From an uncultured Pseudodesulfovibrio sp. (GTDB lineage: Bacteria > Desulfobacterota > Desulfovibrionia > Desulfovibrionales > Desulfovibrionaceae): 64,000 bases of DNA. The notes below the pieces were generated by a model. The model saw only the letters and a program-made list of their open reading frames with translations, was not told the DNA's origin and searched no databases. Made by a program: the position numbers and the translations under genes. Within the stretch, counting starts at the first letter, position 1; each line of letters begins with the position of its first letter. The stretch is from assembly GCA_963677845.1 (NCBI GenBank), contig OY782498.1, positions 1,431,518-1,495,517 of the forward strand. The letters are read 5' to 3'. Of the stretch, positions 14,881-15,930 are shown piece after piece.

Positions 14881-15930
14881 ATGGCAAATAAAAAGCGTAT
14901 AAAGCGAATGTCTGTCTACCAAGGTTTAGCCAAGTACTTCGAGAAAACAGCACTTGAATTACTATCTTCTCAAGAAAGGAAACATCTAATAGGCAAGGGC
15001 TTAGGGCTGTCAATTGCTGTGATAAAGCGACATATGAAATCTCAAATTCGTGCTTTCCCATATTCGGTAAAAAAAACGGGAGCCTTCATCGTGCAGGAAG
15101 GAGCGATACAAGATCCTATCGTTAGAACTAAGCTTGGCGAACTAATTGATTGTTTACAGATTGGGGATAAGCGTCTCAACAACCCAAATCTTAACAAACG
15201 TGAGCGGTTTGTTACGCATAACAATCAAGGTTTTTTTGACAAATCCGGGCGATTCATAGCTGACTTTATGGCAGACAGTATGCACATACGACACTTCCAT
15301 GTTGGGTACAACAAATTGACGAATGACCAACTCGTATATGCTTTATTTCATACGCATGAAATAACATTACTTGCTATAGGTTGCCACTCTGACATGTATA
15401 TCGAATCGAAAGAAAACCCTATTTTCAATGTGCTAGAGACTGAACTTCCAGTTGTTGCTGATTCGTTGTGTCCCGTTATGAAAGGAATTTTGCCATCTTT
15501 CACAGATCAACCTAGCCCCCAAGATATAAAAAACCTGAAAACCAATGGAGTAAATATTCATTTTGCAGACAGCCAAGGACAAGCCAGAATGGTTCTTAAT
15601 GGAAATACAATGGCTCGTACGCCAATTGATACAAGAATGTTTGCAGATCGAATTGCCTACGAACTGAGAGATATAGTCCAAGATGAAAATGCTACATTTA
15701 TATCACTAGAACATCATAAAGGTCATCCGTGTTTATTGTTAAAGTTACCTCATGGACATGACTATCGATATGAGCTTGTAAAACTGAATACGCAGTCTGC
15801 ATTAGTGAGTGCCGCTGAGATGTTAGAAGAACTTTTCATTGTTGAAGGAGTGGGCCAATCTCCTCAGTATCCTAGGATACAAGAGCGTTTTAAAAGTAAA
15901 AAGAATCAGAAACGAATTGCTCGCACGTAA
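14881..15930 (+). CDS. Orphan hypothetical protein (349 aa) with basic termini and a central His-rich YafO-toxin-like motif
   Basis: Long uninterrupted ORF in AT-rich DNA; I recognise no family for the full length. Residues about 135-175 (MHIRHFHVGYNKLTNDQLVYALFHTHEITLLAIGCH) resemble the HxH..TND..LVY....LLAI..H core of YafO-type toxins, recalled from memory. Confidence 0.55.
   Translation: MANKKRIKRMSVYQGLAKYFEKTALELLSSQERKHLIGKGLGLSIAVIKRHMKSQIRAFPYSVKKTGAFIVQEGAIQDPIVRTKLGELIDCLQIGDKRLNNPNLNKRERFVTHNNQGFFDKSGRFIADFMADSMHIRHFHVGYNKLTNDQLVYALFHTHEITLLAIGCHSDMYIESKENPIFNVLETELPVVADSLCPVMKGILPSFTDQPSPQDIKNLKTNGVNIHFADSQGQARMVLNGNTMARTPIDTRMFADRIAYELRDIVQDENATFISLEHHKGHPCLLLKLPHGHDYRYELVKLNTQSALVSAAEMLEELFIVEGVGQSPQYPRIQERFKSKKNQKRIART

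Follow-up and report, generated by a model that had tools for sequence, protein, structure and literature searches.

PD-T4-7 is a single gene of Escherichia coli UMB0103 encoding 352 aa (RRN43039.1), which was shown to confer abortive-infection phage defence in E. coli and was grouped with toxin-antitoxin (TA)-like systems under the label 'RelE toxin-like' (Vassallo et al. 2022, PMC9519451). Its top HHpred match was PF13957 YafO_toxin (51%, residues 118-164), followed by weak TssC and phage-sheath matches (PMC9519451). YafO and YafQ are counted among the toxins of the Barnase-EndoU-ColicinE5/D-RelE-like (BECR) fold (PMC11980606). In YafQ, H50 or H63 serves as general base and H87 as general acid, D67 tunes H87, F91 stacks on the A-site base and D61 is important (Maehigashi et al., PMC4652777). 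Fusion of a toxin domain to a sensor within one protein is exemplified by CapRel, described in a 2024 survey as a fused TA sensing a capsid protein. Here we describe the only cargo gene of a small AT-rich islet at a tRNA-Ser gene of an uncultured Pseudodesulfovibrio sp., lying in a stretch of 64,000 nt of contig OY782498.1 (the window; positions below are those of the window). The 349-aa product of this gene, the window protein, is predicted to be a divergent member of the PD-T4-7 family with a RelE/YafQ/YafO-like core.

Sequence searches of Pfam, NCBIfam, PHROGs and PDB with the single window protein gave nothing usable. The PD-T4-7 model of PADLOC matched it with an E-value of 3.7e-7 (27.5 bits; residues 134-276 against model positions 119-268 of 337). 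A word-indexed search of 5.8 billion proteins returned four relatives only, and a five-sequence profile run against 1.84 billion cluster representatives (50% identity) returned 53 proteins, mostly of 285-364 aa. The 47 near-full-length members among these 53 formed alignment A3, of which 46 matched the PD-T4-7 model (best E-value 3e-51); a second homolog search with the 47-sequence profile returned 7 proteins. The comparison with PD-T4-7 was made through the PADLOC models PDLC04065/PDLC04066 and strongly matching relatives, not with RRN43039.1 itself. The relative P0045 matched the model at 5e-42, most tested members of the window's subclade at about 1e-7 to 1e-12. When the subclade (A4, 13 sequences) was aligned by hhalign to ten canonical-like members (A7), the two matched with Prob 99.8% and an E-value of 2e-29 over 243 columns, covering residues 16-266, and BLASTP aligned the window protein directly to P0045 (E 2e-6, 22% identity). 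No relative was found when genome contigs were scanned with the A4 profile, and no match was obtained by tblastn against 50,697 phage and 72,556 plasmid records.

Judged by these comparisons, the window protein is a divergent member of the PD-T4-7 single-gene defence family. An earlier reading made from the letters of the DNA alone (the sequence-only reading) had called it an orphan that could not be placed in any family and had considered an entirely new fold. Neither description is supported, since the protein belongs to a named defence family whose model is matched by it and by 46 of the 47 relatives and whose profile aligns to that of its subclade at 99.8%. The further proposal of a one-gene toxin/sensor module for defence or addiction fared better in its first half, which fits PD-T4-7 as a validated single-gene abortive-infection system (PMC9519451), whereas an addiction role is less consistent with the data. 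The likeness to PD-T4-7 extends to a single gene of about 350 codons without partner, to the layout of the protein, in which N-terminal helices precede a RelE/YafO-like core and a further domain comes after it, to the invariant D...HxH...H positions, to AT-richness and to mobile or defence contexts. The window protein differs in its last ~80 residues, containing a His cluster and a basic tail, which could not be aligned. The genomic setting differs as well, the neighbours being housekeeping genes typical of sulfate-reducer-like bacteria and not those of an enterobacterium, and a defence role here would hold by analogy.

AlphaFold modelling with five sequences gave an unusable result (predicted local distance difference test, pLDDT, 54.7), whereas the deeper alignment of 47 sequences yielded a confident full-length model (pLDDT 93.5; predicted template-modelling score, pTM, 0.90). 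The core was modelled with pLDDT >90 and comprises strand 62-65, helices 67-74 and 79-94, an insert (95-135), strands 136-140, 151-156 and 160-167, and helix 169-172. The order beta-alpha-alpha-(insert)-beta-beta-beta in this model is the RelE topology as defined in PMC11980606. In a Foldseek search against PDB, ranks 1-19 were all RelE/ParE-superfamily toxins (RelE, YafQ, YoeB, HigB, ParE), with target template-modelling (TM) scores of 0.46-0.70. The best match was V. cholerae YafQ (9lew_B; E 2.4e-3, prob 1.00, target-normalised TM 0.70). Other matches were the H. pylori YafQ-like toxin (4ltt/4lsy), YoeB, RelK, RelE2, E. coli YafQ, HigB and ParE, and the CARF-RelE fusion Cami1 (8phb, 8phj) appeared lower in the list. 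A PDB profile search with the 47 sequences gave no significant match. The modelled core thus has a RelE/ParE-superfamily fold, as the sequence-only reading had suggested looking for with AlphaFold and Foldseek, and YafQ (PF15738; PDB 9lew, 4q2u, 4mmj) is its nearest solved structural relative according to the model. YafQ is, however, a 92-aa monodomain toxin with a separate DinJ antitoxin, while the window core lies inside a 349-aa protein without an antitoxin gene and carries an insert of ~30 residues between alpha2 and beta2.

Within A3, D128, H138 and H169 were invariant (47/47), H140 and L151 were each conserved in 44 members and G95 in 45; position 149 was Asp in 33 of the 47 and Asn in 7, and position 173 was Tyr, Phe or His in 36. 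A weak hhalign match of the A3 profile to E. coli YafQ (residues 135-173 with YafQ 58-91, E 0.035) paired H138 with D61, H140 with H63, D149 with D67, H169 with H87 and Y173 with F91, so that equivalents of YafQ H63, D67, H87 and F91 are conserved; D128 may lie about where YafQ H50 would fall. Matches to PF15738 YafQ_toxin below the gathering score of 30 bits were also observed in 12 of the 47 members (best E-value 3.2e-4). In one of them, P0036, the match of 20.2 bits covered residues 126-165 against profile positions 51-87 of 88, the same segment as the core.

The sequence-only reading had named a YafO spacing of HxH...TND..LVY with a following LLAI...H, and this pattern is accurate, as E. 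coli YafO contains HIH...TNDEAHLVY...LLIAIL..PEPH (region VAHIHLANENNPFPPQLRQFSRTNDEAHLVYCQGAFDEQAWLLIAILKPEPH). The profile PF13957 YafO_toxin itself matched neither the window protein (E <=10) nor any of the 47 members (E <=1). Comparison of A3 with the single E. coli YafO sequence gave a Prob of 0.4% only. With a YafO family alignment of 14 sequences (A5), whose invariants include H60, H62, H85 and H109, a weak match was obtained (Prob 24%, P 8e-4, 33 columns, residues 133-165 against YafO 55-101), which reproduced the HxH...TND..LVY...LL register. It paired H138 with H60 and H140 with H62, and H169 could be paired with H109 by eye. Since the family-invariant residues line up with the catalytic histidines of YafQ and the invariant histidines of YafO, the YafO-like motif is probably genuine, as a remote similarity within the BECR superfamily and not as membership of Pfam YafO_toxin. 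The claim of a YafO-like core thus stands for the superfamily fold and the register and falls for PF13957; the sequence-only reading had re-derived the same weak resemblance that the discoverers of PD-T4-7 reported. What the two have in common is the motif hAHhHL...T(N/S)D..LVY...LL(I)A(I)...H, a local one. The HxH-TND loop measures 17 residues in YafO versus 6 in the window protein, and YafO, the toxin of the type II pair YafN-YafO, is a protein of 132 aa with an upstream antitoxin.

The gene has an ATG start, and its translation contains both peptides quoted in the sequence-only reading and shows the composition described there. The protein has a calculated isoelectric point of 9.4, with lysine plus arginine making up 19% of residues 1-130 and 24% of codons 1-58, six His within residues 131-175 and a second His cluster at 278, 279, 282, 291 and 293. 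The closest relative, P0002 (74% aa identity), is encoded on a metagenomic contig of 1.3 kb (L006), whose similarity to the window begins upstream of the gene and continues across it, and which ends in the same TTCCACCCTCTCCGCCAGCAAAA junction (exact 15-mer present). The Nei-Gojobori ratio of nonsynonymous to synonymous substitution (dN/dS) between the window gene and the L006 copy was 0.16 over 349 codons, at a dS of 0.89, and was lowest in codons 59-175 (0.087). The window gene is under purifying selection. A third close copy, of ~64-68% identity and with the same hairpin-then-gene layout, lies at 182-1226 of LQAJ01002760.1 (GCA_002900505.1; L011 = L136). This copy is frameshifted and split into ORFs of 177 and 106 aa, owing either to lineage-specific gene decay or to assembly errors in a highly fragmented draft.

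Residues up to ~266, i.e. the N-terminal helices and 176-266, are common to the canonical-like clade, while residues 267-349, modelled as a beta-sheet and helices, are specific to the subclade. No fold match of the C-terminal domain was found in PDB or BFVD, and the domain may be a regulatory or sensor part of the protein. Its His cluster (278-293) was present only in the window protein and P0002; it is lineage-specific, and a general role for it is not supported. In the basic tail, KSKKNQKRIART, the pattern S/R-K-N-x-K-R recurs in several members of the subclade.

No candidate ORF or known RNA for an adjacent antitoxin was found in 14631-16060. No ORF of at least 20 aa clear of the gene or the tRNA occurred inside the islet, the gene was the sole ORF >89 aa between the islet repeats, and the Rfam scan of the islet detected the tRNA and no other family. 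These ORF and Rfam scans agree with the earlier description of an islet with a single cargo gene and no partner antitoxin. A conserved upstream partner was considered for the canonical-like clade, in which ORFs of 161-169 aa precede the gene in three loci, and was rejected. The two comparable ones (L140, L012) are unrelated, so that no partner is conserved across the family. Lone copies of the family gene could also be observed (L135, L145).

We consider it likely that the window protein is an abortive-infection toxin of the PD-T4-7 type, contained in a single polypeptide, with a RelE/YafQ/YafO-like core that would cleave mRNA once a phage cue relieves intramolecular inhibition. The N-terminal helices, the core and the C-terminal domain would form a single compact body. 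In the uninfected cell, the regions on either side of the nuclease core would keep it inactive, making a separate antitoxin unnecessary. A phage-dependent cue would release the core, which would then cleave mRNA, most likely on the ribosome. D128, H138 and H140 would serve on the side of the general base, H169 would be the general acid and Y173 the aromatic residue that stacks on the base. Translation would stop, and the infected cell would yield no phage. Horizontal transfer would have brought the gene to the 3' end of tRNA-Ser as an AT-rich cassette containing no other gene, and it would now be fixed there without an integrase. We infer RNase activity, ribosome dependence, autoinhibition, trigger and activity in the host; a defence function is suggested by analogy with PD-T4-7, which protects E. 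coli by abortive infection (PMC9519451).

Several observations weigh against this assignment and mechanism. The PADLOC match of the window protein itself is modest (27.5 bits) and restricted to residues 134-276, and its identity to canonical-like members is only 16-22%. The final ~80 residues are unaligned to these members, so that the function could have shifted. The window protein has no Pfam YafQ or YafO match and no Pfam toxin model reaches threshold; the statistics of the YafQ and YafO alignments are weak (E 0.035 and Prob 24%, respectively), and coverage of only about one third of the query leaves the Foldseek E-values above 1e-3. The 2024 survey states that the mechanism of PD-T4-7 'remains to be elucidated', and RNase activity is undemonstrated even for the E. 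coli protein. Autoinhibition by the flanking domains is purely conjectural. Finally, the frameshifted L011 copy suggests that the gene is dispensable in some lineages.

The genomic contexts of the homologs, to which the sequence-only reading had pointed as informative, proved to be defence or mobile settings for several relatives. The genes of P0004 and P0005 (32-34% identity) follow a gene for an Abi_C-domain protein matching PADLOC AbiJ at 1e-17, with a gap of 4 bp in the P0004 loci. In one metagenomic contig (L001; ENA ERZ25038488 NODE_18098), the AbiJ-like and PD-T4-7-like genes form a low-GC islet of 2.2 kb at the 3' end of tRNA-Ala(GGC), bounded by two copies of a 36-nt GC-stem hairpin (4-39 and 2186-2221), a layout that mirrors the duplication of tRNA end and terminator in the window. 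In a locus with a Qat-like arrangement (L138; JGI Ga0256405_10012742, 988-9905), a relative of 26% identity is encoded in a compact one-strand defence island, preceded, in this order, by genes for a KAP NTPase, a protein of no assigned family, a QueC-like protein, TatD and an AAA_15/AAA_21 ATPase and followed by one for a DUF2971 protein. The gene of P0010 (L142 2557-5699; Logan ERR14251028_2807) starts 16 nt after a HigB-like/HTH_3 pair, with ParE/RHH and another HigB-like/HTH_3 pair behind it; the islet has 42% GC in a 66%-GC genome and lies between hypDE and glycosyltransferase genes. The gene of P0054 is near genes for an E2/E1/JAB protein, a protein kinase and a transposase, that of P0056 is beside an integrase fragment, and that of P0106, with 38% GC in a genome of 70% GC, stands alone with trpGDC on one side and pqq-type genes on the other.

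P0008 (EGY26304.1 of Desulfovibrio sp. A2, 33% identity; L135 8001-9074, IMGVR_UViG_2513237295_000003) is encoded by a lone opposite-strand gene of 36% GC, a moron within the tail module of a Mu-like prophage of 69% GC. On one side of it is a DUF6848 gene and on the other are the tube/DUF2586 genes, and genes for baseplate J, tape measure, Phage_tail_S and Mu F lie nearby. The same prophage contains a second low-GC ORF beside baseplate genes (2317-2823, 168 aa), for which no Pfam or PADLOC match was found. At 16043-17035 on the reverse strand it also encodes a Mu F-like head protein with a C-terminal PBECR2 domain, so that the prophage itself encodes a BECR-fold nuclease. The family genes have 28-42% GC, even where the flanks have 66-72%. 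The picture that emerges is of an AT-rich single-gene cassette landing in defence islands, TA islets, prophage moron sites and tRNA sites.

The islet of the window has a length of 1.4 kb and a GC content of 39% overall (37-41%), with flanks of ~50%. Its features are listed in the table below.

Features of the PD-T4-7-like islet and domains of its gene product (window positions)
Feature	Position	Strand	Evidence or remark
tRNA-Ser (anticodon CGA)	14538..14630	+	ARAGORN; Rfam tRNA 57.3 bits; 3' end is left border of islet
Left direct-repeat copy, attL-like, CCACCCTCTCCGCCA + 14 nt	14616..14644		29 nt; 90% identity to right copy
Terminator-like hairpin for tRNA	14638..14672	+	Perfect 16-bp stem (100% complementary), then T-run
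Candidate promoter/regulatory block, 35 nt, TTGGGGTGTAT..TTTTGTATGGCTAAT	14796..14830	+	Three-way upstream alignment of window, L006 and L011
PD-T4-7-like gene	14881..15930	+	Only islet cargo
N-terminal basic helical region	14881..15054	+	Codons 1-58; AlphaFold helices 2-8, 10-25 and 41-54; aligned to canonical-like clade from residue 16
RelE/YafQ/YafO-like (BECR-fold) core, predicted	15055..15405	+	Codons 59-175; AlphaFold topology, Foldseek, conservation, hhalign, lowest dN/dS
C-terminal alpha/beta domain, predicted	15406..15930	+	Codons 176-349 + stop; AlphaFold; hhalign coverage ends at residue 266
Right direct-repeat copy, attR-like	16030..16058		29 nt; TTCCACCCTCTCCGCCAGCAAAA junction also closes L006 copy
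Terminator-like hairpin + T-run outside right repeat	16056..16079	+	Terminator scan

The left repeat consists of the final 15 nt of tRNA-Ser and the beginning of the terminator, and each repeat copy has its own terminator-like hairpin behind it. A hairpin positionally equivalent to the left one heads contig L011. The position at a tRNA 3' end, the flanking direct repeats and the deviant GC content are those of a tRNA island, and the repeat structure reads as a tRNA-targeted insertion, in which the left junction would have restored the tRNA 3' end and brought a new terminator. The displaced original tRNA end (CCACCCTCTCCGCCA|GCAAAATAAAAAGC + hairpin) would now close the islet at the right, where the hairpin is probably the original terminator of tRNA-Ser, now ending the transcript of the gene. 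The 35-nt block shared by the three copies is likely a promoter or regulatory region; a simple consensus sigma-70 scan upstream of the gene gave nothing convincing on the forward strand. No integrase or recombination genes were found between the repeats. As the same one-gene form is shared by copies diverged to a dS of ~0.9, without an integrase, the element may have been reduced to this form long ago or may move as such. An empty site was sought by scanning genome contigs with a pattern of the tRNA 3' half, which is conserved across phyla; no syntenic locus occurred among the at least 120 matches listed.

The flanks of the islet are housekeeping genes. Upstream are genes for a KDO8P/DAHP-synthase family protein, CTP synthase, a GATase_5 amidotransferase, a TadA-type deaminase and a Nitro_FeMo-Co protein, downstream those for a DEAD-box helicase, CCG/4Fe-4S Hdr-like proteins and tandem Usp. 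A tadA-type deaminase gene lies ~1 kb or less from a PD-T4-7-like gene both in the window (13338-13826, forward strand) and in the unrelated metagenomic contig L137 (3-413, reverse strand), whose PD-T4-7-like homolog is 32% identical. This proximity was judged coincidental, as the orientation differs, L137 has neither tRNA nor att remnant and tadA is commonly beside tRNA-Ser. A 28-nt inverted repeat (14412-14439 and 14511-14538; 86% complementary, 71 nt apart) ends on the first base of tRNA-Ser and could be a processing or regulatory stem of the tRNA precursor. Two further low-GC stretches of the window (31000-40000 and 61000-64000) have 40-43% GC versus 47% for the whole window. By eye, the genes of the first look ordinary and encode a glutamate-synthase-like oxidoreductase, a CHASE2-type adenylate/guanylate cyclase and an NAD(FAD) oxidoreductase.

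Other explanations of the gene were weighed against the abortive-infection toxin. That the D-HxH-H set does not form a RelE-type RNase site, being instead metal-binding, part of a DNA-directed nuclease or a ParE-type non-catalytic surface with another target, seems unlikely to us. ParE toxins share the RelE/ParE fold without being RNases, ParE structures were among the Foldseek matches and two family members weakly match a ParE-like model; ParE toxins, however, are without the BECR RNase catalytic residues (PMC11980606), whereas here three to four His/Asp positions are invariant and coincide with the acid-base residues of YafQ. A copper-bound YafQ-like toxin (4lsy) was among the top Foldseek matches, which would suit metal binding. 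A compact protein of 40 kDa may not fit the ribosomal A site, and YafO and MqsR may cut RNA without ribosomes (PMC11980606), but ribosomes are where large RelE fusions such as Cami1 act (8phj among the matches). It is very improbable that the gene is the inert leftover of a decayed genomic island, open by chance or through recent arrival and unexpressed. The lack of an integrase or any other island gene, the frameshifted related copy and a consensus scan without a strong sigma-70 promoter on the forward strand upstream would agree with such a leftover. A dN/dS of 0.16 over 349 codons at a dS of ~0.9, the intactness of all family-invariant residues, the conserved 35-nt upstream block and the terminator behind the gene do not.

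An addiction or stabilisation module, i.e. a fused TA-like protein guarding the islet or the tRNA region from loss, would account for the fact that two or more other lineages (L006, L011) have kept the one-gene islet together with its right-hand junction, for the purely housekeeping neighbourhood and for the relative located among classical TA pairs. A single stable polypeptide, however, has no obvious way to punish the loss of its own gene, and the L011 copy decayed without apparent consequence. Moreover, the validated family member acts in phage defence, and relatives have AbiJ, Qat-like or other defence genes as neighbours or are located in a prophage, so that we give this explanation hardly any credence. 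More speculative is the possibility that a structural protein made late by the phage, the candidate being the tail sheath/tube module, finds its decoy or receptor in the C-terminal domain. This domain would keep the RelE-like RNase locked until such proteins build up, in the manner of CapRel with a new sensor fold, and the cassettes of 1.4-2.2 kb could move by means of tRNA-targeting integrases acting in trans. Weak sheath-like similarities were seen in a PDB profile match to tail sheath 9cb9 (E 0.4), in Foldseek (3lml, rank 49) and in the HHpred table of Vassallo et al. (PMC9519451), all of them non-significant, and the gene of P0008 sits between a tail-chaperone-like gene and the tube/sheath genes of its prophage. 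The viral fold search in BFVD gave no meaningful match, leaving a phage sheath-like domain unsupported, and we regard the whole proposal as quite unlikely. If it were true, the protein would be a fused sensor-toxin with a new sensor fold, and the cassettes bounded by a tRNA end and terminator hairpin (window, and L001 at tRNA-Ala) would be integrase-less modules. The parallel with CapRel(SJ46) and Cami1 is one of concept, a single protein uniting a toxin domain that acts on translation with a domain for regulation or sensing, and Cami1 also carries a RelE-like domain and was among the Foldseek matches. The accessory domains of the window protein are, however, non-homologous to theirs, with neither CARF nor pseudo-ZFD, and the toxin of CapRel is a tRNA pyrophosphokinase, not an RNase.

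The preferred reading of the gene thus remains that of a divergent new member of a known, validated defence family, useful as a generator of hypotheses and not conceptually new. PD-T4-7 belongs to the defence systems validated in E. coli, and its family is rare, with 53 clusters at 50% identity among 1.84 billion representatives. The window protein extends the reach of this family to a very divergent subclade in non-enteric bacteria, with a relative in Desulfovibrio sp. A2. The contexts of the relatives show how the family may travel, as a one-gene AT-rich cassette, and D128, H138, H140 and H169 provide a concrete list of invariant residues that would map onto the catalytic histidines of YafQ and YafO.

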